Positions 2,859 to 11,760 of a DNA stretch of 32,000 nt are shown here, in pieces (position 1 is the stretch's first letter; each line of letters begins with the position of its first letter). The stretch is from positions 1,590,001 to 1,622,000 of the forward strand of contig NC_020304.1 of the NCBI RefSeq assembly GCF_000341395.1, read 5' to 3'. Both the position numbers and the translations under genes were made by a program. The notes beneath the pieces are model-generated. The model was given only the letters and a program-made list of their open reading frames with translations. It searched no databases and had not been told where the DNA came from. The DNA comes from Desulfocapsa sulfexigens DSM 10523. Lineage in GTDB: Bacteria; Desulfobacterota; Desulfobulbia; Desulfobulbales; Desulfocapsaceae.

Positions 2859-3040
2859 GCCATCGCCAAAAGGAACGGATTGATCCTGCCCCAATTTTGT
2901 AAAGTCATAATTAAGCAAACCAAGTCTTGCTGATGCCTCGTTCTTAAAATAAACATGATTGGTATAACTCGTGCGGGGGTACTTGGGATATTGCCGTATT
3001 CCTTTGTATTCAAAAGCGCAGCTGTCGCTATTGTTTTGTT

Positions 3041-3478
3041 ATGTCGACATATTTTGTGATGTTTTATTTGTTTTTAATCGTTTTTATAGTTAATGTGATC
3101 CAAATCGAAAGCTCAGCTCATGTCAGCGTGAACCCCAGTCAGAAAGCTAAAATGGTCAAATCTTATACCGTAACCATACTTAATCATGATTTGAAGGTTT
3201 CCTGTCAACGAGGTTACAGCCTGTTGAACAATTTCCTGATAAATAATGCTCCTATCCATACAACCTGTGGTGGCCATGCTAACTGTGGATGTTGCCGGAT
3301 AAGGATTTTGGAAGGAGAAAAAGGATTAACCCAGCCAAACGAACGAGAAGTGAAACGACTCGGTAAAGATCTTATCTCACAAGGTTGGAGACTTTCATGC
3401 CAAACACACAGTTTGCGTGATATTACAGTTCACATGCCAACAAGTAATGAGTTGGATCCAGAGTGTTCAAAAAAGTAG
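3041..3478 (+). CDS. 2Fe-2S ferredoxin-like (fer2) domain protein
   Basis: Cys motif CGGHANCGCC (C-x5-C-x2-C) plus the distal RLSCQ Cys, typical of plant-type/NqrF-type fer2 domains. The start is uncertain: ATG 3041 gives a hydrophobic N-terminal extension, and GTG 3128 or ATG 3152 (MVKSYTVTIL) are alternatives. No clear SD at any of them. G+C is lower than the flanks. Confidence 0.7.
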   Translation: MSTYFVMFYLFLIVFIVNVIQIESSAHVSVNPSQKAKMVKSYTVTILNHDLKVSCQRGYSLLNNFLINNAPIHTTCGGHANCGCCRIRILEGEKGLTQPNEREVKRLGKDLISQGWRLSCQTHSLRDITVHMPTSNELDPECSKK

Positions 3479-3497
3479 CGATCAAAAGAACTGAACA

Positions 3498-3725
3498 TCA
3501 AAAGGGAATGAGCTGATCGCTCACCTCTCCCATCATCAACAGTATCACTATCAAGACCAGCCAAATTTTCAGTCTGAAAATCACCAAGAAAATCAACCTG
3601 CTCCTGTGTACCAGCATCAAGAAAACCAGCGTATATCTCAGTAGTTTTTTAATTAAGAATTGTAGCAGTCTTTTCTTTTCCCACCTTCTGCTGTCGATGA
3701 CCAGTGATAAGCTTTCCAGTTTCAC
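3498..3725 (-). CDS. Hypothetical small hydrophobic protein (75 aa), doubtful
   Basis: GTG start preceded by AAGGA 4 nt upstream on the minus strand. The translation is strongly hydrophobic, and an open frame of 75 codons is somewhat unexpected in AT-rich DNA. No recognisable motif. Confidence 0.25.
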   Translation of the reverse strand: MKLESLSLVIDSRRWEKKRLLQFLIKKLLRYTLVFLMLVHRSRLIFLVIFRLKIWLVLIVILLMMGEVSDQLIPF

Positions 3726-3980
3726 ATAATCCTTAAACGCAACCTGTCTACTGTTGCTCTTAAATAGTTAAGATTGCAAAGGGCTTCCTTCTGATGTCTT
3801 TCTAAAAAGTCTGTCAAAGACATTTCAGGTATGCTTTAATGAACGGATAAACATTGTAGCAGAGAAGAAGCGCGAATAGTCTCGCATTCTGCCTCCCTGT
3901 TCACTTAAGCTTGTCAGAAATATTCAGTTTCGTGATAAGAATTTGTTGGATTTGAAAATCAATAATGGGAGCATCAACCA

Positions 3981-4988
3981 ATGCCTTCTTTAGATTTTGA
4001 AAAAGAAAAACAAAGGTTTCTCAATTACGCTAGTGACAATATCGAATTGTTACGTAACGCTGAATCGTCATTTTCGACTCTAATTAAATCACTCCTGGCC
4101 ACCTCTTCAGAACTCTCTGCATCAACCGTTACATCTCGCGTCAAAGGTCTCGAAGAATGCATCAGTAAATTTTCAAGAAAATACCAGTCAGAACTTGAAG
4201 AAGAAAAAAAAGAATATGAAATTAAAGATTATATAACTGATTTAATTGGCATAAGAATCATCTGTCTTTATGAAAAAAATATTCAAGAAATTGGAAAAAT
4301 CCTGATGGATAATTTGTGTCTAATTGATTCAACAGACAAATCTCGACTACTGGAACAAACAGAAAATTCTTTTGGCTACAAAGGCTTACATCTAGATCTA
4401 AAGCTTGATTCAACAAGAGAAATTATGCCTGAGTACCGTATTTATAAAGACATAAATTTTGAGGTACAAATACGGACAATTATACAGGATGCCTGGAGCG
4501 TTCTTGATCATAAAATTAAATATAAGAAATCAATACCACATGTGCTAAAGCGCAGGATAAACAGTCTTGCAGCTCTTTTTGAGACAGCCGACAGAGAATT
4601 TTTCAGTATTCGTGAAGAAACAGAAAAACTTGAGAAGATTACCAAGGAAAAAATCAACACCAACGAAAATGAGACATTAAACGTTTTCCATTTTGAAAAG
4701 ATTGCAGAACAGTATTTCCCTGAATTTCATTTTTCATCACGAAAAATTGATGCCCTCGTTGATGAAATATTGAATCACAAAAAAATTACGGAAGTGTATT
4801 TTAAGAAACTCATTAAACAAAATATAGAAACAGTACTTAACTACGAAGAGTTTCTTAAAGGCCAGCATCTTCTGACACCGTATACAATAATACGGCACAC
4901 CCTATACTATGGGGATAAAAAGGCATTTACTCGTATACTTTATGAGTACCAAAGAAAGGCATTTGACAAATGGCTTGAAAACCAATGA
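3981..4988 (+). CDS. RelA/SpoT-homologue (small alarmone synthetase / toxSAS-like nucleotide pyrophosphokinase) with C-terminal extension
   Basis: Synthetase-domain motifs in the canonical order: SRVKGLEECISKFSRK, DLIGIRIICLY, GYKGLHLDLKL, FEVQIRTIIQDAWSVLDHKIKYK. GGGAG SD 9 nt upstream of the ATG. About 120 aa follow the catalytic core with no recognisable motif. A hand count of the first 100 nt gives 34 G+C. Confidence 0.9.
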   Translation: MPSLDFEKEKQRFLNYASDNIELLRNAESSFSTLIKSLLATSSELSASTVTSRVKGLEECISKFSRKYQSELEEEKKEYEIKDYITDLIGIRIICLYEKNIQEIGKILMDNLCLIDSTDKSRLLEQTENSFGYKGLHLDLKLDSTREIMPEYRIYKDINFEVQIRTIIQDAWSVLDHKIKYKKSIPHVLKRRINSLAALFETADREFFSIREETEKLEKITKEKINTNENETLNVFHFEKIAEQYFPEFHFSSRKIDALVDEILNHKKITEVYFKKLIKQNIETVLNYEEFLKGQHLLTPYTIIRHTLYYGDKKAFTRILYEYQRKAFDKWLENQ

Positions 4989-5219
4989 AAAAAATCTAAT
5001 CGAGGGGGCTCATGCCTCTTTATTGCAGATGGTACACTATAGTTATTGGACTGATTCGTAGCTGTGTGATGCGGTTTTGTAGATACAAAATTAGTCTCTC
5101 TTTTTCCTCCTAACTATCCTCTCAGTATGAGGCGTGACGAAAACTGTGGAGGGAGAAAGAACAGGTGGGTACTGTAATAGGTACTGCAACATTTCTCTTT
5201 TCAGATAAGGACTATAATC

Positions 5220-6158
5220 GTGCGTTATTTTCTCCTTCTCATTTTTATATCGCTTACGGCCTGTGACAGCCGTCCCCAAAATATCGCTCTGGGTACATTG
5301 GAGAGAGACCGTATTGCTCATACAGCCACAACTAATGAAATTGTGGTGGCATTGCCAGTTTTGCAGGGCAGTGAAGTGAAAAAAGGTACTCTCCTGGTAA
5401 AGCTGGATGACACCCTGCAACAGACGCAGGTCAGCAAGGCTGAAGCAGAGGTTGCTCAAGCTGAAGCGAATCTTGAAAAATTACGCAACGGCGCCCGACT
5501 GGAAGAAGTTGCGGCCGCAAGGGCTAAAGTTGAAGGGGCAAAAGCAGTGCTGGTTGAAAATGAAGCGAATTATGAACGTTCACTGAAACTGATAAAATAC
5601 AGCGTAATCAGCCAGGCCACTCTGGAAAGTGCATTGGCATCGCGTGATTCCAGCCTTGCAAGTTTGCAGAGTGCTCAGGAGGAATTGCATGAGTTAACAA
5701 GTGGTACACGCGAGGAGGACTTGCGTGCAGCCGAGGCTCGTTTGGATGCCGTTATTGCAAGCTTGGCAGGTGAAAAGAAAAAGTTAGCTGACTTAAGCGT
5801 CAGGGCTACCCGGGATGGGCTCCTTGATGATCTTCCCTGGAATCTTGGAGAACGGGTAACTGCAGGTAGTCCTCTGGCAATAGTCCTTGCAGGTAAGGCT
5901 CCTTTTGCCCGAATTTATGTTCCCGAACCTTACCGCGTAAAAGTAAAAGTCGGAGACACCTTAGTTGTACATGTTGACGGTCTTGAAAAAACACTCAATG
6001 GCAAATTGCGCTGGATTGCAACTGAACCCGCCTTTACACCTTACTACGCGCTAAATCAGGAAGAACGTTCACGTCTGATGTATTTAGCGGAAGTACAATT
6101 ACAAGACAGTGAAGCCTATCTACCTAATGGGGTGCCTGCACAAGTAGAGCTACCATGA
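5220..6158 (+). CDS. HlyD-family membrane fusion protein (lipoprotein) of an ABC-2 exporter
   Basis: GTG start with AAGGA SD. Lipobox LTAC. Long Ala/Glu-rich coiled-coil segment flanked by beta-barrel-like ends, as in YbhG/HlyD proteins. The stop overlaps the next gene (ATGA). Confidence 0.88.
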   Translation: MRYFLLLIFISLTACDSRPQNIALGTLERDRIAHTATTNEIVVALPVLQGSEVKKGTLLVKLDDTLQQTQVSKAEAEVAQAEANLEKLRNGARLEEVAAARAKVEGAKAVLVENEANYERSLKLIKYSVISQATLESALASRDSSLASLQSAQEELHELTSGTREEDLRAAEARLDAVIASLAGEKKKLADLSVRATRDGLLDDLPWNLGERVTAGSPLAIVLAGKAPFARIYVPEPYRVKVKVGDTLVVHVDGLEKTLNGKLRWIATEPAFTPYYALNQEERSRLMYLAEVQLQDSEAYLPNGVPAQVELP

Positions 6159-7081
6159 GCGAATATGCAATAAAGGCTTCAAAGTTAAGTCGAAATTTTG
6201 GGAACCTGAAAGCAATAAAAGAGCTGGATCTCGAGGTTGAAAGAGGCCTGATTTATGGTTTTCTAGGTCCCAATGGCTGTGGTAAAACCACAGCCATTCG
6301 TTTGTTGACCGGCTTATTGAAACCCAGTTCTGGCGAAATTCAGGTTTTAGGATTGAAGCTTCCACAGGATGCAGAAAAACTCCGCCTCCATATTGGTTAT
6401 ATGACCCAGAAGTTCTCTCTCTATGATGACTTGACAGTAAAAGAAAATTTACAATTTGTCGCAAAAATATATAGTCTGTCTGGTAATTTACGAAAGAAAC
6501 GCATAGATGAACTGTTGAATATCTATGGCCTGGATCAAAGAACAAATCAGCTGGCTGGAAGTATGAGTGGTGGGCAGAAGCAACGTCTTGGCCTGGCTGC
6601 TGCTACATTGCATAAACCTGAGTTATTGTTTTTAGATGAGCCCACTTCGGCTGTTGATCCTGAAAATCGTCGTGAGTTTTGGGAGCAGTTATTTGACTTG
6701 AGTGATCAAGGTATCAGTATACTGGTTTCGACTCATTATATGGATGAAGCTGAACGTTGTCATAAATTGGCGATATTAGAGGCGGGTAATAAGCGTGCAG
6801 ATGGATCGCCAGATGAGTTAATGCGGCAGATGGGGGCACATGTCGTAGAAATAGCCTCATCAAACCTTAGGCAGCTAAAACAGGAATTGGTGATGTTGCC
6901 CGATGTGATTTCTGCTGCCCAGCTTGGAGCACAATTACGAGTTCTGGTCAAAAAAAGCATTCCAGATCCGGTGAAGTTTTTATCCCGACAAAAGAGTGTT
7001 AACCCGGAAGCAAATCTGTCCGTAGTCAGACCAAGCCTGGAAGATGTATTCGTTACCTGTACCGGCAGGGGGAGACAGTGA
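6155..7081 (+). CDS. ABC transporter ATP-binding protein (ABC-2 type)
   Basis: Walker A GPNGCGKTT, signature MSGGQKQRL, Walker B LLFLDEPTS, H-loop STHYMDE. Overlaps both neighbours by 4 nt. Confidence 0.93.
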   Translation: MSEYAIKASKLSRNFGNLKAIKELDLEVERGLIYGFLGPNGCGKTTAIRLLTGLLKPSSGEIQVLGLKLPQDAEKLRLHIGYMTQKFSLYDDLTVKENLQFVAKIYSLSGNLRKKRIDELLNIYGLDQRTNQLAGSMSGGQKQRLGLAAATLHKPELLFLDEPTSAVDPENRREFWEQLFDLSDQGISILVSTHYMDEAERCHKLAILEAGNKRADGSPDELMRQMGAHVVEIASSNLRQLKQELVMLPDVISAAQLGAQLRVLVKKSIPDPVKFLSRQKSVNPEANLSVVRPSLEDVFVTCTGRGRQ

Positions 7082-8223
7082 ACGTTTTATTACGAATTTA
7101 TGCCATCTTCAGCAAAGAACTCACTCAACTTAAGCGTGATAAGATGACCTTTGGTATGGTGATAATGATCCCGTTAATACAGTTGGTTTTATTTGGGTAT
7201 GCCATTAACTCCAACATACGACATATACCTGCAGGCGTGGTGGATGACAGTAAAACCGGGTTAAGTAGAGTCTTGATTCAAACCATCAGTGCAACCCATG
7301 TGGTAAATTTTAAACAACATTATAGTAACGCTCAACAGGCAGAGGAAGCTATTGCACGTGCTGAGGTACGAGCTGTTCTGGTGATACCGAAGGATGTCAG
7401 TCAAAGATTAGTACGACATCAGGCCGTTGGTCTAGGATTGCCACCTTCGAGTGATGAAGAAACCAGTCGCCCGCTTGCACAGTGGGTGGTCGATGGGTCA
7501 GATACGACGATAGCTGCAGCTATAAAAAGCCTGCGAAATATGCCATTGGCTGAATTACTTAGCAAACCCGCAAACCGCAGTACGCCAACTTTTGAAGTGA
7601 CTCTGTTATATAACCCCGAACAACGCAGTGCAGTGAGCATTGTTCCAGGCCTTGTAGCTGTTATTTTAACGATGACCATGATTATGTTTACTTCAGCGGC
7701 CATTGTACGTGAACGTGAACGGGGCAATTTAGAAATGCTGATAACAACCCCTGTTAGGCCCGTTGAATTAATGCTTGGGAAGATTATCCCCTATATGTTT
7801 ATTGGCGCCCTGCAGGTTACGATTATTTTAACTCTTGGGAAAATTGTATTTGATGTGCCAATTAATGGAGGCCTTGGGCAGTTGGCAGGTGCTACCTTCC
7901 TGTTTATCGCCGCAAGCCTCACATTAGGATTAGTTATCTCAACAATAGCCAAAAACCAACTACAATCCACCCAAATGACGATATTTGTATTACTGCCATC
8001 AATACTTTTATCCGGTTTTGTGTTTCCCTACGAAGGTATGCCTGAATTGGCACAACATATTGCAGAAGCATTGCCTGCGACTCATTTTGTGCGCTTGATA
8101 CGTGGTGTGGTTTTACGTGATGTGCAAGTAATTGATATGACTTTTGACGTCTCTTGGCTGGCATTGTTCACATTGGCGGGTTTGGCGGTAGCATCGTTAC
8201 GATTTAAGAAGAACCTGGATTAG
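7078..8223 (+). CDS. ABC-2 family transporter permease
   Basis: GTG start overlapping the ATPase stop (GTGA). One N-terminal TM helix, a large periplasmic loop and then about five C-terminal TM helices, the YbhR/YbhS-like architecture. Confidence 0.9.
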   Translation: MNVLLRIYAIFSKELTQLKRDKMTFGMVIMIPLIQLVLFGYAINSNIRHIPAGVVDDSKTGLSRVLIQTISATHVVNFKQHYSNAQQAEEAIARAEVRAVLVIPKDVSQRLVRHQAVGLGLPPSSDEETSRPLAQWVVDGSDTTIAAAIKSLRNMPLAELLSKPANRSTPTFEVTLLYNPEQRSAVSIVPGLVAVILTMTMIMFTSAAIVRERERGNLEMLITTPVRPVELMLGKIIPYMFIGALQVTIILTLGKIVFDVPINGGLGQLAGATFLFIAASLTLGLVISTIAKNQLQSTQMTIFVLLPSILLSGFVFPYEGMPELAQHIAEALPATHFVRLIRGVVLRDVQVIDMTFDVSWLALFTLAGLAVASLRFKKNLD

Positions 8224-8408
8224 CATATTTAAAGCGATCCAATGATTCCATATTGCTCAATCATAACCCACAAGGTTCCCCGTCGTTATCCGGATTGAAA
8301 GACACCGCCTCCTTTTTTAAGGTTTCATGAAACCAGTATCCAAGGTCGCAAAGGCGAAAACGATTGCTGCAAAAAGAGCCTTTATTGTGTATCAGGAGGT
8401 AATATATT

Positions 8409-8432
8409 ATGTTCATGGTGGAACGGAACTGA
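8409..8432 (+). promoter_or_regulatory. Candidate 7-codon leader peptide (MFMVERN) in the AOR 5' leader
   Basis: Perfect AGGAGG at 8394-8399, 9 nt upstream of ATG 8409. Stop TGA at 8430-8432, 37 nt before the AOR GTG, which has no SD of its own. CCTCCT at 8308-8313 is complementary to this SD. Confidence 0.3.
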
Positions 8433-8469
8433 AGACTTACTACTATTGCTTACCTGAAAAATAAATATC

Positions 8470-10254
8470 GTGGCTACTTCTCTATACGGCTGGACTGGAA
8501 AAATCCTCCACATTGATCTCGATAATGGCTGTATTGACCTTATCCGGCCGGAATCTGGAATTTACCATACATACATAGGCGGTAAAGGGCTTGCAGGGTA
8601 TTACCTGAGACCTCAGGTGACTCTGCCCTGGGATCATCCGCGTATGCCACTCCTTGTTTTTACCGGTCCCCTGGTTGGGACAGCTGCTCCGACCTCTGGT
8701 CGTTCAACAATCATGTCACGGTCGCCGCTTAGTGGAACAATCGGGGACACCTCCGTCGGTGGTCGCCTTGGCTTTCAGTTAAAACGGGCAGGGTGGGACG
8801 GGATTATTATTACCGGTCAGTCCGAGACGCCATGCGGGATTGAGATAGAAGATGACAAGGTTCAGATTGTTGGAGCGGCTGAACTTTGGGGAAAGGACAC
8901 AGCAACCGTCTTCAATATCCTGGCAGCTGGTAGCCGATCGGTTGCCACCATCGGCCCGGCCGCAGAAAATGGAGTCTTCTTTTCAGCCTTGATGGTTGAT
9001 AAACACCATGTTGCCGGACGATCAGGCATTGGACTTTCCTTTGCAGCCAAAAAACTCAAATATCTGTCGGTGCGGGGCAGTGGCAATGTAAGGATCCACG
9101 ACAGAGAAAAACTGCATGTCGCTCGAGAGGAAATTCTCAGGCTCACGGCAGCCTCTCCTATTCTCATGGGGCAGCACGGGTTTTCCTGCTTTGGCACAGG
9201 ATCCATTTATGACCTGATGGATTCACGGCGTATGATGCCAACGGATAACTTTCGGAAGACTCATTTTGGCCGGGCCTCCGAACTCAATGCCCATGCCTAC
9301 AAAAAACAATATGACCCGGGCAAGCATGGTTGTATGGGCTGCCATATCCGCTGTAAAAAAATCGGTCGCAGTGAGAAGCACGCCGGTGCTTCCATGCCTG
9401 AGTTCGAAACCATGTCTCATTTCACCGCCCTCATCGAAAATACAGATATGGACCTTGTCATGCAGGCCAATGCACTTTGCAGCCGTTATGGTATGGATAC
9501 AATTTCTGCTGCCGCAACACTTGCCTGTTACAAGGAGATGTCCGGCATTAGTGATCTGTCTGGCCAGCTTGTGCAATTGCTGGAAGAGATCGGCCTGGGA
9601 TCTTCTGATCTTGGCAGACAGCTTGGTAAGGGGTCTCTCCATTATGCCTCAAGCCATAATCAGCAGACTGCTTCAATGAGTGTTAAGGGATTGGAACTGC
9701 CCGCCTATGATCCCAGGGGGGCATACGGAATGTCTCTGGCCTATGCCCTTGCTACCCGTGGAGGCTGTCATTTGCGGGCCTATCCGATCAGTCATGAAAT
9801 TTTACGAAAACCTGTTGCCACGGACCGTTTCACCTTCAGCGGCAAGGCCAGGATAGTTAAGATTGCAGAGGATCAGAATGCCATTGTTGATTCGCTCACT
9901 GCCTGTAAATTTATCTTTTTAGGAGCTGGCCTTGAAGAGTATGCCGGGGCATTCAATGCTGTCACCGGAATGACTGTTACGGCTCAGGATCTGTTAAAGA
10001 TTGGCGAGCGCATCTGTTACCATGAGCGCTTGATGAACAGTCTTAACGGATTTTGGGCCAAGGACGATGATCTTCCCGACAGATTTTTTGTAGAAGCTGG
10101 AACCAGCGGTAATGGCATAGAGATTAAGCCTCTTGAGCGGGAAGCATTTCTTGAGGCTCGCAGCCGCTACTACAGAATTCGCGGTCTTGACCAGGACGGC
10201 AGAGCAACACAAGAAAAAGCTGAAGAGCTGGGGCTTGTATGGAAAAACTCCTGA
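8470..10254 (+). CDS. aor: Aldehyde:ferredoxin oxidoreductase family protein (tungsto-/molybdopterin enzyme)
   Basis: N-terminus YGWTGKILHIDL and YIGGKGLAGYYL. 4Fe-4S ligand motif CMGCHIRC (C-x2-C-x3-C) plus the distal DSLTACKF. Length of 594 aa is typical. GTG is the first start after an in-frame TGA. Confidence 0.92.
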   Translation: MATSLYGWTGKILHIDLDNGCIDLIRPESGIYHTYIGGKGLAGYYLRPQVTLPWDHPRMPLLVFTGPLVGTAAPTSGRSTIMSRSPLSGTIGDTSVGGRLGFQLKRAGWDGIIITGQSETPCGIEIEDDKVQIVGAAELWGKDTATVFNILAAGSRSVATIGPAAENGVFFSALMVDKHHVAGRSGIGLSFAAKKLKYLSVRGSGNVRIHDREKLHVAREEILRLTAASPILMGQHGFSCFGTGSIYDLMDSRRMMPTDNFRKTHFGRASELNAHAYKKQYDPGKHGCMGCHIRCKKIGRSEKHAGASMPEFETMSHFTALIENTDMDLVMQANALCSRYGMDTISAAATLACYKEMSGISDLSGQLVQLLEEIGLGSSDLGRQLGKGSLHYASSHNQQTASMSVKGLELPAYDPRGAYGMSLAYALATRGGCHLRAYPISHEILRKPVATDRFTFSGKARIVKIAEDQNAIVDSLTACKFIFLGAGLEEYAGAFNAVTGMTVTAQDLLKIGERICYHERLMNSLNGFWAKDDDLPDRFFVEAGTSGNGIEIKPLEREAFLEARSRYYRIRGLDQDGRATQEKAEELGLVWKNS

Positions 10255-11402
10255 AAAAATATGCCCTGAAACTCATTGCTGCAGGGCTTGCGGAGAATCC
10301 TCTTATCTGCGGACTGGATGATGAGGTGGTCTGGAGTCGGGCCGACGACGATATCCAGGTCTTAGAGCAGGTCCTGGCTGGCATGAACATAAACTCTCTC
10401 ATTTGCATTGAACCGGCAGACCCGTATTTGACGATTTTCCGGTTTCTATGCGATCGTTATCCAGAAACCATAACTCCAGAGGACTGTGAAACACGTACTT
10501 TTCTCCATGATGTGCCTGTGATCAGTAACTTTTCAGCTGCAGCTATCCTCACCCACCTGCGTAGACGCAAGTCCATTGTTGTTGCTTCCGGCAAGAGTAT
10601 CCGCCTGATCACCTTTGGAGCTGTCAGCCCGGAGCAGGCCTTTGTCAGTCTCAGCTCCGTCTGTTTCAGCGCCTTTGTCCTCTTTTTTACAGACTACCTG
10701 GCCGACCGCAGGCAGGGTGTAGTCACGGAGGAACAGCAGCGAGCCTTTGACAGGGTGACTGCACAGCTCTCCCCGCCACACAGGACAACACCAGCGCTGG
10801 AGGCAGGGCCATTTCGCAGTGCAGAGCAGGTCCACCGGGCAATCATTGAGGCTGGTCGTTTTACGGTGGACTATGGACTGGTTGACTCATATTTTGGTAA
10901 TATCTCCTATCGTCTTGACCAGACCATATATATCAGCCAGACTGGCTCATCCCTTGATGAGCTGGCTGGGTGTATAGACCCCTGTCCTCTGGATGACTCA
11001 TCCTGTGCTGGGATAACCGCCTCCAGTGAACTGGTGGCCCATGAAGAGATCTACAGAAACACAGCTAATCGAGCCATCCTCCATGGCCATCCGAAGTTTG
11101 CGGTTATTCTATCCATGGATTGCAGTGATTTTGATTGTATCAACCGTGGTCGCTGCCATATTAAATGTTCGAAGGAACGCTTGATCGAAGATATTCCCAT
11201 TGTTCCCGGTGAAGTTGGAACTGGCCCCACCGGTCTCTGCCACACCCTGCCTCCTGCCATTCAAGGCAGACGGGGTGTAATTGTATGGGGGCATGGCCTG
11301 TTTACAGTGGCAACTGTTGATTTTAATGAGGCATTCAAACAGCTTCTCGAAATTGAAAACATGTGTCGGGAAGAATATTTTGCCAGGGTCAGGCATTGTT
11401 GA
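10239..11402 (+). CDS. Class II aldolase/adducin-domain protein with an N-terminal domain of unknown function
   Basis: The C-terminal half has FGNISYRL, ASSELVAHEEIY, metal ligands HGHP and WGHGLF, in the order seen in FucA-like enzymes. The N-terminal ~190 aa are unassigned and may be a degenerate second copy. Overlaps the aor stop by 16 nt. Confidence 0.8.
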   Translation: MEKLLKKYALKLIAAGLAENPLICGLDDEVVWSRADDDIQVLEQVLAGMNINSLICIEPADPYLTIFRFLCDRYPETITPEDCETRTFLHDVPVISNFSAAAILTHLRRRKSIVVASGKSIRLITFGAVSPEQAFVSLSSVCFSAFVLFFTDYLADRRQGVVTEEQQRAFDRVTAQLSPPHRTTPALEAGPFRSAEQVHRAIIEAGRFTVDYGLVDSYFGNISYRLDQTIYISQTGSSLDELAGCIDPCPLDDSSCAGITASSELVAHEEIYRNTANRAILHGHPKFAVILSMDCSDFDCINRGRCHIKCSKERLIEDIPIVPGEVGTGPTGLCHTLPPAIQGRRGVIVWGHGLFTVATVDFNEAFKQLLEIENMCREEYFARVRHC

Positions 11403-11451
11403 AATTCCGTAGCTGTCCCGTTCTCTTATAAAAAGCATAAAGGAAGTTGCC

Positions 11452-11760
11452 ATGGCTCTGGTTAATATTGAATCTGCAATAAAACAGGTATTGCAGATCG
11501 TTAAAAAACTGGATCCGCCACAGGGGTTGGAAATACTGACTTATAAGCGTAATCGCGGGATCACCATCATTAAAATCGATGAAGATACTCTATCCGTCCA
11601 GGAAAGAGGGTATGAGGAAAGTACCTTTCAAGTGACAATGGCTGATCTGGGAAAGCAGCTTAAATCCATTGCTAAAAGAGAGTTTCCGCGAAGTCGTAAA
11701 GTACGTGTCTATCAGTTGGATAGTCCCTACTGTCTAGGAATAAAACGCAAACAGATATAG
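11452..11760 (+). CDS. Hypothetical protein (102 aa), last gene of the aor cluster
   Basis: AAGGAAG SD 6 nt upstream of the ATG. Same strand as the preceding gene and 49 nt after its stop. No recognisable motif. Confidence 0.6.
   Translation: MALVNIESAIKQVLQIVKKLDPPQGLEILTYKRNRGITIIKIDEDTLSVQERGYEESTFQVTMADLGKQLKSIAKREFPRSRKVRVYQLDSPYCLGIKRKQI

Follow-up and report, generated by a model that had tools for sequence, protein, structure and literature searches.

Among enzymes of the RelA/SpoT type, RelP (YwaC/SAS2) and RelQ (YjbM/SAS1) are the housekeeping (p)ppGpp synthetases of Firmicutes, proteins of about 210 amino acids (aa) that end after helix alpha5. Fused or partner-activated enzymes such as CapRel and Pag1B form a growing class of immune effectors, in which each new regulatory domain has revealed a new route of sensing infection. 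CapRelSJ46 (PDB 7ZTB) modifies tRNA and senses a phage capsid protein; its regulatory domain is a pseudo-zinc-finger made of a three-stranded beta-sheet and a helix, in which a YXXY motif is conserved and the surface is hypervariable (PMC9712102). In the type I PANGU system, a nucleoid-associated protein (NAP) serving as sensor, Pag1A, and the effector Pag1B, a toxSAS (toxic small alarmone synthetase) of the GRel group, are encoded in a bicistronic operon. Pag1B consists of a SYNTH domain, a helical linker and a C-terminal domain, makes pppGpp, is not toxic alone and is activated by Pag1A, its C-terminal DMK domain being an acidic DNA mimic (bioRxiv 10.64898/2026.04.06.716658). A further named subgroup of small alarmone synthetases (SASs), bdRel, has been listed since 2011 without an assigned function and is distributed, among others, in beta- and delta-proteobacteria (Atkinson, Tenson and Hauryliuk 2011, PMC3153485). 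The present analysis concerns a SAS-like gene, probably of this subgroup, in a stretch of 32,000 nucleotides (nt) from Desulfocapsa sulfexigens DSM 10523 (NC_020304.1, positions 1,590,001 to 1,622,000), which is called the window below.

The open reading frame (ORF) in question was complete and intact, with an ATG start and 335 codons followed by a stop (Table 1). It is a real and foreign SAS-like gene, a solitary insertion in a Desulfobulbales chromosome without integrase or attC, and the comparison of its relatives showed that the gene has been acquired horizontally as a single-gene unit. The reading towards which we lean, stopping short of calling it probable, is that of a mobile SAS-like enzyme which is held off until a cue sensed by its C-terminal domain (C-domain) triggers alarmone synthesis and growth arrest, in a response to stress or by abortive infection.

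A RelA/SpoT core followed by a five-helix domain

In Pfam, the protein matched RelA_SpoT (PF04607) only, over residues 52-184 (E 4.6e-15; 56.3 bits against a cut-off of 27), and no HD, TGS or ACT domain was found at E <= 1. Together with the intact catalytic residues and the length of 335 aa, this placed it in the SAS class, and a preliminary description of this DNA, made by a model from the letters and their translations, had rightly taken it for a stand-alone SAS rather than a long Rel/SpoT. The pyrophosphokinase motifs listed in that description were likewise all present, and they proved to be invariant in 77 members of the family: R53-x-K55, K63, D87xxG90xR92 and E161xQ163xR165-T166, as well as G132-Y133-K134-G135-L136-H137, W172, H177 and Y181-K182. 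The ATP-site and catalytic residues of Staphylococcus aureus RelP (R78, K80, K88, R91, D107, R112, E174 and H190; PMC5794853) mapped one-to-one onto R53, K55, K63, R66, D87, R92, E161 and H177. In the family alignment R53, K55, K63, R66, D87, R92, Y133 (the G-loop tyrosine), E161, Q163 and H177 were invariant or nearly so, and the sole difference from the RelP site was S84 of RelP, which corresponds to an invariant E59. Since all of the ATP-binding and catalytic residues are intact, the pyrophosphokinase core looks competent. A prediction of the acceptor substrate was also considered and abandoned, as no applicable residue-level rule was present in the literature read.

The full-length AlphaFold2 model, built on a 23-sequence alignment, reached a mean predicted local distance difference test score (pLDDT) of 84 and had two N-terminal helices, an alpha/beta catalytic core, a long helix leading into a linker (Table 1) and five helices over residues 235-334. 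The extreme N-terminus was unusually conserved (MPSLDFExEKxxF, with M1, E9 and F13 invariant), and the linker measured 9-41 residues across the family and was usually acidic.

The helical extension behind the core had already been noticed in the preliminary description, and it was confirmed as a conserved domain. When residues 222-335 were folded alone, a pLDDT of 91.8 and a predicted template modelling score (pTM) of 0.84 were obtained, and the model was all-alpha, about 100 aa in length, with five helices and no strand. The invariant positions were F236, F246, D257, Y288, R305, H306, L308, L320, F328 and W331, and the signature of the domain was NP(Y/F)TxIRHxLYxx(D/N)K. Its net charge was +2 in the window protein, with a family median of +1. 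No structural relative was found by Foldseek (best E 0.8 in PDB and 1.1 in BFVD), and Pfam gave no match. A profile of the C-domain retrieved just 183 hits among 1.84 billion representative proteins, nearly all of them with the same SAS architecture or contig-edge fragments. A stand-alone C-domain protein, such as a split toxin/antitoxin would have, was rejected: the short hits were contig-edge fragments that started inside helix alpha5.

The exception was a Bacteroidota family of about 440 aa with the invariant motifs ILRESHxxHF and ITERRNLFVHxDG (an Rx4H HEPN-like motif). The C-domain, recognised by its NPYTxxRHCLY...F..W signature, has been acquired by seven of the 14 aligned members of this family, most members of which are without it. 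One member is named HEPN domain protein by UniRef, and a weak match to RTasHEPN was given by PADLOC. Because the C-domain stands on two unrelated effector-like enzymes, it is a portable module, a pattern characteristic of conflict systems and their regulatory or sensor domains. Some SAS members had extra tails after the C-domain, made of TPR repeats over about 250 aa (P0202) or zinc-ribbon-like with four CxxC pairs over about 120-170 aa (P0183 and P0215). The HEPN-motif family (P0212, P0315, P0316, P0322, P0332, P0336 and P0338; locus L101, 8001-9629) has more than 1,000 members, no match in Pfam, and appears uncharacterised; its C-domain-bearing subset is 537-551 aa long.

Purifying selection was observed on both domains of the SAS family, with ratios of non-synonymous to synonymous rates (omega) of 0.03-0.16 in close pairs. 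Between the window gene and a relative of 90% identity, omega was 0.05 in the N-terminal domain and 0.14 in the C-domain. Within the window clade the non-synonymous rate (dN) of the C-domain was 2-4 times that of the catalytic domain, and in the syntenic copies of Comamonadaceae the two rates were equal.

When a family profile was compared with the sequences in PDB, only chains of the RelP/RelQ type matched (E 1.7e-16 to 1.6e-10), and no CapRel, FaRel/FaRel2, Tas1, exported SAS or long Rel chain was found at E <= 10. Foldseek also ranked RelQ/RelP first (E 7e-9), with target-normalised template modelling scores (TM-scores) of 0.72-0.80 over about 210 residues. RelP, RelQ and the window protein agree in their ATP-site residues, G-loop tyrosine and ExQxRT motif, at an identity of about 20-25%. 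Unlike these two enzymes, the window protein has a conserved N-terminus and adds a linker and the five-helix domain of about 100 aa, and its gene is a mobile, AT-rich accessory one. Its score against the NCBIfam equivalog for RelQ (NF053588, GTP diphosphokinase YjbM) was 54.1 bits against a cut-off of 320, and hence it is not a RelQ or RelP proper.

The assignment to bdRel came from the distribution of the family. In the supplementary tables of PMC3153485, the sole SAS of Acidovorax citrulli AAC00-1, Acidovorax JS42, Diaphorobacter TPSY and Ralstonia pickettii 12J is labelled bdRel. Full-length members of the present family were found in Paracidovorax, Acidovorax, Diaphorobacter and Ralstonia, in synteny within Comamonadaceae. 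Because full-length members occur in the genera of the genomes that have bdRel as their only SAS, the window protein and its family probably are the bdRel group, a match made across strains of the same genera and not through the same accession. As published, bdRel is a name in a classification, to which the present survey adds Cyanobacteria, Acidobacteriota, Bacteroidota, Ignavibacteria, Clostridia and alpha- and gamma-proteobacteria.

Like CapRel, the window protein is a single polypeptide whose SYNTH-type domain is N-terminal and which extends at the C-terminus by about 100 aa, and the two families share locations in prophages and accessory regions and the lack of a separate antitoxin. The preliminary description had accordingly proposed a CapRel-like module, and this identity did not withstand comparison. 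CapRel 7ZTB appeared at rank 39 in Foldseek (E 2e-6), with a TM-score of 0.38 against the 0.72-0.80 of RelQ/RelP, and FaRel2 came lower still; the family profile had no match to 7ZTB or 9ERV at E <= 10. A pseudo-zinc-finger of the CapRel type was rejected too: where the CapRel sensor has a beta-sheet, YXXY and a hypervariable surface, the C-domain here is all-helical, with an invariant polar core and without a Foldseek match in PDB, and YxxY occurred in 22 of the 77 members, scattered at non-homologous places. "CapRel-like" as a family membership is not supported, and the present evidence justifies annotating the gene neither as CapRel nor as a defence gene.

The comparison with Pag1B, a producer of the alarmone pppGpp and not a tRNA modifier, gave a likeness in layout. 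Both proteins have a SYNTH domain, an alpha-helical linker and a C-terminal domain of about 100 aa within some 340 aa in total, and the G-loop tyrosine is Y129 in Pag1B and Y133 in the window protein. They differ in that PANGU has an adjacent NAP gene, whereas no conserved partner accompanies the window family, and in that the DMK domain is acidic and the C-domain near-neutral, the two C-domains being compared by description only. Two-gene toxSAS modules (FaRel, FaRel2, PhRel and PhRel2) were also discarded: when the flanking ORFs of 80 loci were compared all-against-all, no adjacent conserved antitoxin was found.

Spread of the family and its genomic settings

Relatives were collected in a scan of one genome per species, and the best 80 were examined as loci. 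Full-length relatives, of about 335-360 aa, were encoded by at least 441 species representatives from about eight phyla. The best 80 covered residues 1 to about 333 at 42-90% identity and came from Desulfobacterota, alpha-, beta- and gamma-proteobacteria, Cyanobacteria, Acidobacteriota, Bacteroidota, Ignavibacteria and Clostridia. In 79 of these 80 loci the G+C content of the gene was below that of its flanks, with a median difference of 8.5 points and a maximum of 32 points. Copies of 97-98% identity occurred in three gammaproteobacterial families (Pseudohongiellaceae, Porticoccus and Pseudoalteromonas), and a cyanobacterial copy was 84-85% identical to copies from Clostridia and Pseudoalteromonas. 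In the near-identical pairs from different taxa, the DNA was similar across the ORF only, with margins of about 25 nt upstream and 20-80 nt downstream. The gene was also carried by a 16.8-kb Paracoccus plasmid and by Agrobacterium and Ralstonia replicons.

The reading frame was broken early in four of the 80 loci, namely L020 (Desulfogranum marinum DSM 2058), L040 (Marinomonas polaris), L057 (a metagenome-assembled genome of Lamprocystis) and L085 (Undibacterium luofuense); these breaks may be pseudogenes or sequencing errors. L020 stops after 101 aa, and its tblastn matches run to the end. Furthermore, a distant RelA/SpoT-like protein was found in the 8.1-kb phage record PQ189320.1 ("Vibrio phage 10N.261.45.F7_PE002A", 6787-7311), with 29% identity over query residues 85-263, which include part of the post-core region.

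The window copy itself was compared with public contigs and with its nearest relatives. Three public contigs encoded a protein identical to it. Contig L001 was identical to the window over 15 kb, and contig L002 was 99.5% identical solely rightward of 3753, its left flank holding different genes (PAS-GGDEF and a response regulator). L003 was a 1,466-nt contig that spanned exactly 3788-5252, and contig L004 ended at about 3796. With the assemblies broken on either side, the flanks of the gene seem to vary between populations. The relatives L014 (90%) and L015 (85%) shared DNA with the window only over 3946-4999 and 3961-4986, respectively. Given the strain-variable flanks and the similarity limited to the ORF, the window gene, too, acts as a unit of one gene, placed at a junction that varies between strains.

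No same-strand partner had been seen in the preliminary description in the spacers of 255 nt upstream and 231 nt downstream, and this was correct: they held same-strand ORFs of 24-50 aa only. As nucleotide similarity to the 90% and 85% relatives ends at 4999 and 4986, the small ORFs are not part of what is conserved along with the gene, and a small antitoxin ORF in the spacers was rejected on this basis. The absence of a classical two-gene toxSAS pair, also stated in that description, was extended by the clustering of flanking ORFs from the window to the whole family. Its statement that the gene is more AT-rich than its flanks stood as well, with a G+C content of 0.33 (0.29 at third codon positions) against 0.47 in the rest of the window; the low-G+C stretch was wider than the gene (about 2860-5220).

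Evidence for integron cassettes was found around many of the relatives. A core site of the GTTRRRY type lay within 60 nt upstream of the ATG in 21 of the 80 loci, and 18 of these 21 read GTTAG[ACG]Y, against about 1.6 expected by our own estimate, most of them 22-43 nt upstream. In many loci the stop codon was overlapped by an inverse core, (G)GCTAAC, and GCGTTAG closed an imperfect palindrome located 60-110 nt downstream; the site of L026 folded as a textbook attC. A strict detector identified an adjacent attC in nine loci (L026, L031, L036, L037, L041, L051, L052, L058 and L077). The core sites, inverse cores and attC hairpins together indicate that many of the relatives are integron gene cassettes. 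No integron integrase was identified in the flanks of the relatives examined, and the candidates beside relatives in viral contigs were rejected as generic tyrosine recombinases (TIGR02249, 48-69 bits against a cut-off of 265). Integron cassettes that carry phage-defence genes have been described (Kieffer 2025; Darracq 2025; Getz 2025; as cited in 10.64898/2026.03.17.712381), and many of the relatives share the full cassette anatomy. No RelA/SpoT integron cassette reported as tested was found in the searchable literature.

Unlike such defence-gene cassettes, the window copy had no attC, array or IntI, only a 7-mer at the boundary of similarity. No attC-like fold was obtained over 4986-5125 (z +0.6 and +1.0), the detector found no attC on the + strand of the window, and an active integron context was rejected for this copy. 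A cassette origin of the window copy is possible on weak evidence, with the GTTGGAT and ATCTAAT motifs of Table 1 as boundary relics, and the evidence against an active cassette there is the stronger. In L014, two tandem perfect hairpins (488-537; fold z-score -5.8) stood directly before the point where similarity to the window gene starts; this left flank was examined as an attC and rejected, two tandem hairpins not being canonical. The hairpins, TTCACGGCGGC-tcc-GCCGCCGTGAA and TCGCGGTGC-tgacttc-GCACCGCGA, resemble terminators or repetitive extragenic palindromic elements.

Partner genes were sought by BLAST clustering of two sets of ORFs, those of 60 aa or more in the flanks up to 6 kb away and those of 50 aa or more that adjoin the gene on the same strand (E 1e-3). 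No partner gene conserved across taxa was found in the 80 loci, 67 of which had both flanks, and only lineage-local synteny appeared. One cross-taxon cluster of about 919 aa was rejected, as it reflected the generic sharing of PAS/GGDEF/EAL domains at varying distances.

Several relatives lay in settings of genetic conflict. In Grimontia hollisae, the gene was found in the cargo region of a P2-like prophage, between the portal gene and ogr/gene A, a slot recognised as a hotspot of anti-phage genes. One relative lay in an island with AbiJ, Abi_alpha, Shedu SduA_C, BrnT, transposases and an integrase, and in viral contigs the gene adjoined tyrosine integrases, or phage tail or head genes. Strong PADLOC matches among the 117 immediate neighbours of 61 non-redundant loci were to IetA, type IV restriction enzymes, PbeA, DolB, DzbB, DarT, AbiT and DpdF; those among 103 ORFs located 6.5-10 kb away were to mads proteins, PARIS AriA, AbiL and type I restriction-modification. 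A subset of the loci lies in defence-rich regions. The Grimontia cargo region (L013, L021 and L094; about 6090-11066 in L013) held four other genes, which encode a ParA/ArsA-like ATPase, a 353-aa HATPase_c protein and two proteins without family match (224 aa and 252-274 aa) and may be further defence candidates.

Possible modes of action

In the reading that we favour, the enzyme would be inactive in normal cells through its own C-domain, through oligomerisation or through both, as in RelQ and Pag1B. A signal acting through the C-domain, whether a phage protein, a host protein or a small ligand, would switch it on, and pyrophosphate from ATP would then be moved to the 3'-OH of a purine nucleotide. 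By analogy with the nearest relatives and with Pag1B, the acceptor would most likely be GDP or GTP, yielding (p)ppGpp, with ATP as the alternative; the outcome would be a halt of growth, in response to stress or as abortive infection. Arrival in new hosts without any companion gene is not compatible with constitutive toxicity, so that the enzyme would be either benign or self-restrained. Precedents are CapRel (PMC9712102) and PANGU Pag1B (10.64898/2026.04.06.716658); a toxin or defence role of the window gene is inferred. A wider claim, which we put forward as a tentative idea that leans to the doubtful side, is that bdRel-type enzymes are new single-gene, trigger-activated effectors of growth arrest that have spread largely as cassettes, with the C-domain as a new portable sensor or autoinhibitory module on at least two unrelated types of toxic effector. 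Three observations may be new, namely the C-domain without a match in PDB or BFVD, its fusion to the HEPN-motif protein and the carriage in integron cassettes; they were not found in the literature searched, a search that left subscription journals and large supplementary datasets on RelA/SpoT homologues and integrons outside. The cassette-borne unit comprises just one gene, about 1 kb long, which makes cloning and challenge easy.

A number of results weigh against this reading. Of the characterised enzymes, RelP and RelQ stand closest, and both are of the housekeeping kind; the searchable literature held no function for bdRel, nothing on its C-terminal domain, mobility or context, and no experiment on any member. 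No full-length copy was present in 50,697 deposited phage genomes, and no mobile-element, integrase or defence genes were found near the SAS gene among the genes of the window. In PADLOC, the window protein itself gave a weak, partial match to the candidate single-gene system PDC-S33 (37 bits, catalytic region only), for which a literature search returned nothing relevant. The control ORFs 6.5-10 kb off in the same loci also matched defence models, and since this leaves no clean negative control, no quantified defence enrichment is claimed. In about ten species of Comamonadaceae the gene was syntenic and of near-native G+C, with a deficit of just 3-6 points, and bdRel was the only SAS in these genomes besides RelA and SpoT. 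It was also syntenic in three genera of Desulfocapsaceae, in the order metallophosphoesterase, SAS and methyltransferase, and looks resident in both families. The preliminary description had held that placement among housekeeping SASs, or conservation in place at native G+C in related genomes, would refute its proposal; solved relatives of the housekeeping type and near-native synteny in Comamonadaceae were indeed found, and in Desulfocapsaceae the synteny. Lastly, each of the two domains is under purifying selection, and the C-domain, unlike a hypervariable phage sensor, has D257, R305 and H306 as invariant polar residues.

An ordinary, regulated accessory (p)ppGpp synthetase, tuning the stringent or stress response with its C-domain as an oligomerisation or allosteric ligand-binding element, would fit much of this list. 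RelP and RelQ are the top matches in sequence and fold, all the ATP-site residues of a (p)ppGpp synthetase and the G-loop tyrosine are conserved, the polar C-domain residues suggest a fixed ligand or interface, the public annotations read "(p)ppGpp synthetase" and the window neighbourhood is of the housekeeping kind. Cassettes and islands would then have spread the gene because extra alarmone capacity aids tolerance of stress or antibiotics, not because of phage defence; the family would be a widely transferred, regulated alarmone synthetase, relevant to integron-borne stress tolerance. We hold this to be somewhat unlikely, as the score for the RelQ equivalog, 54 bits, lies below the cut-off of 320, the extreme horizontal mobility and AT bias would be unusual for a housekeeping regulator, relatives occupy a prophage cargo slot and an Abi/Shedu island, the C-domain is also fused to a HEPN-motif protein, and four of 80 copies are disrupted. 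Improbable, in our view, is an effector like that of PANGU, an inert oligomer that awaits a separate C-domain-binding activator, a host or phage factor encoded elsewhere. The common architecture at about 340 aa, the similar position of the G-loop tyrosine, the resemblance of the catalytic domain to tetrameric RelQ/RelP and a low-confidence flexible linker, which recalls the one unresolved in the cryo-EM structure of Pag1B, favour it; no adjacent partner is conserved in the 67 loci with both flanks or present in the window, and the C-domain lacks the acidity of the DNA-mimic DMK. Lower still is the probability of a true fused toxin-antitoxin of the CapRel type, in which the N-terminal domain would pyrophosphorylate the tRNA 3'-CCA and the C-domain would keep the ATP site blocked as long as no phage structural protein is bound to that domain. 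A single ORF with a C-terminal extension, the prophage, island and cassette contexts, the significant though low-ranked Foldseek match to 7ZTB and the faster evolution of the C-domain in the window clade agree with it, and the failed profile match, the low TM-score, the all-alpha C-domain with its scattered YXXY and the strong conservation of the C-domain core across phyla do not. That the window gene is a decaying passenger, a stranded former cassette no longer expressed or useful, is barely credible: attC, integrase and a recognisable sigma-70 promoter are missing upstream and four of the 80 relatives are disrupted, but the ORF is intact with a ribosome-binding site, several independent samples encode the same protein or one of 98% identity, and the low omega values against the 90% relative hold for both domains. 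The trigger-activated effector described at the outset is the reading we retain, at the strength given there.

Features and neighbours of the locus

The features of the locus are collected in Table 1. A scan for promoters and terminators around the gene gave nothing informative.

Table 1. Positions in the window of the SAS-like gene, the parts of its product and the surrounding features.
Feature	Position	Strand	Basis
Putative bdRel-type small-alarmone-synthetase-like protein, whole ORF	3981..4988	+	ORF translation, Pfam, homologues
Two N-terminal helices, residues 1-45	3981..4115	+	AlphaFold2 model, family alignment
RelA/SpoT SYNTH catalytic core, residues 46-186	4116..4538	+	PF04607, RelP/RelQ alignment, residue mapping, family invariance, Foldseek
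Long conserved helix, LKRRINxLAxLFExADxEF, equivalent to alpha5 of RelP/RelQ, residues 187-223	4539..4649	+	Alignment, AlphaFold2
Poorly conserved, low-confidence linker, residues 224-233	4650..4679	+	AlphaFold2, family alignment
Family-specific five-helix C-terminal domain, residues 234-335	4680..4985	+	AlphaFold2, Foldseek, family alignment, profile search
Shine-Dalgarno-like GGGAG, 9 nt 5' of the ATG	3967..3971	+	Read from the sequence
GTTGGAT, fits the GTTRRRY core-site consensus, just a 7-mer	3945..3951	+	Similarity to L014 starts right after its G, at 3946
ATCTAAT, inverse-core-like, 6 nt past the stop; no attC hairpin after it	4994..5000	+	Complement of the L014 left boundary ATTAGAT
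Low-G+C stretch (0.31-0.42) between chromosomal genes of about 0.47-0.50	2860..5220		G+C scan
Strain-level junction	3753..3796 (second break at 5252 in one contig)		Comparison with contigs L002, L003 and L004

Besides the SAS gene, the low-G+C stretch contained a Fer2-like ORF and about 500 nt without a convincing gene (3479-3980). The Fer2-like ORF (3041-3478, + strand) encodes 145 aa with a 2Fe-2S ferredoxin domain and a hydrophobic N-terminus, has a G+C content of 0.39 and is missing from the public gene calls for L001, the identical contig; this may be another gene of foreign origin beside the SAS. The wider neighbourhood was of housekeeping type, with an ABC exporter, AOR, FtsH, RsgA and a TRAP transporter.

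The syntenic copies had neighbours of their own. In Desulfopila, Desulfosediminicola and Desulfogranum (L017, L019 and L020, about 8970-11720), the SAS gene stood between genes for a calcineurin-like metallophosphoesterase of 281 aa and a Methyltransf_16-like protein. In Comamonadaceae, a gene for a polyhydroxyalkanoate-depolymerase-like protein lay downstream and one for a CHASE-PAS-GGDEF-EAL sensor divergently upstream (L046, L078, L084, L089, L090 and L092, about 7000-9900, - strand).

Additionally, genes of cyclic di-GMP signalling were seen near the SAS gene in several unrelated contexts, namely in the window, where a dCache-PAS-GGDEF-EAL gene (44-1306) lies 2.7 kb upstream, in L001 (2972-6232), in L002 (4517-6345), there directly upstream, and in Comamonadaceae. 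This proximity could be due to chance, because such genes are abundant in these genomes.

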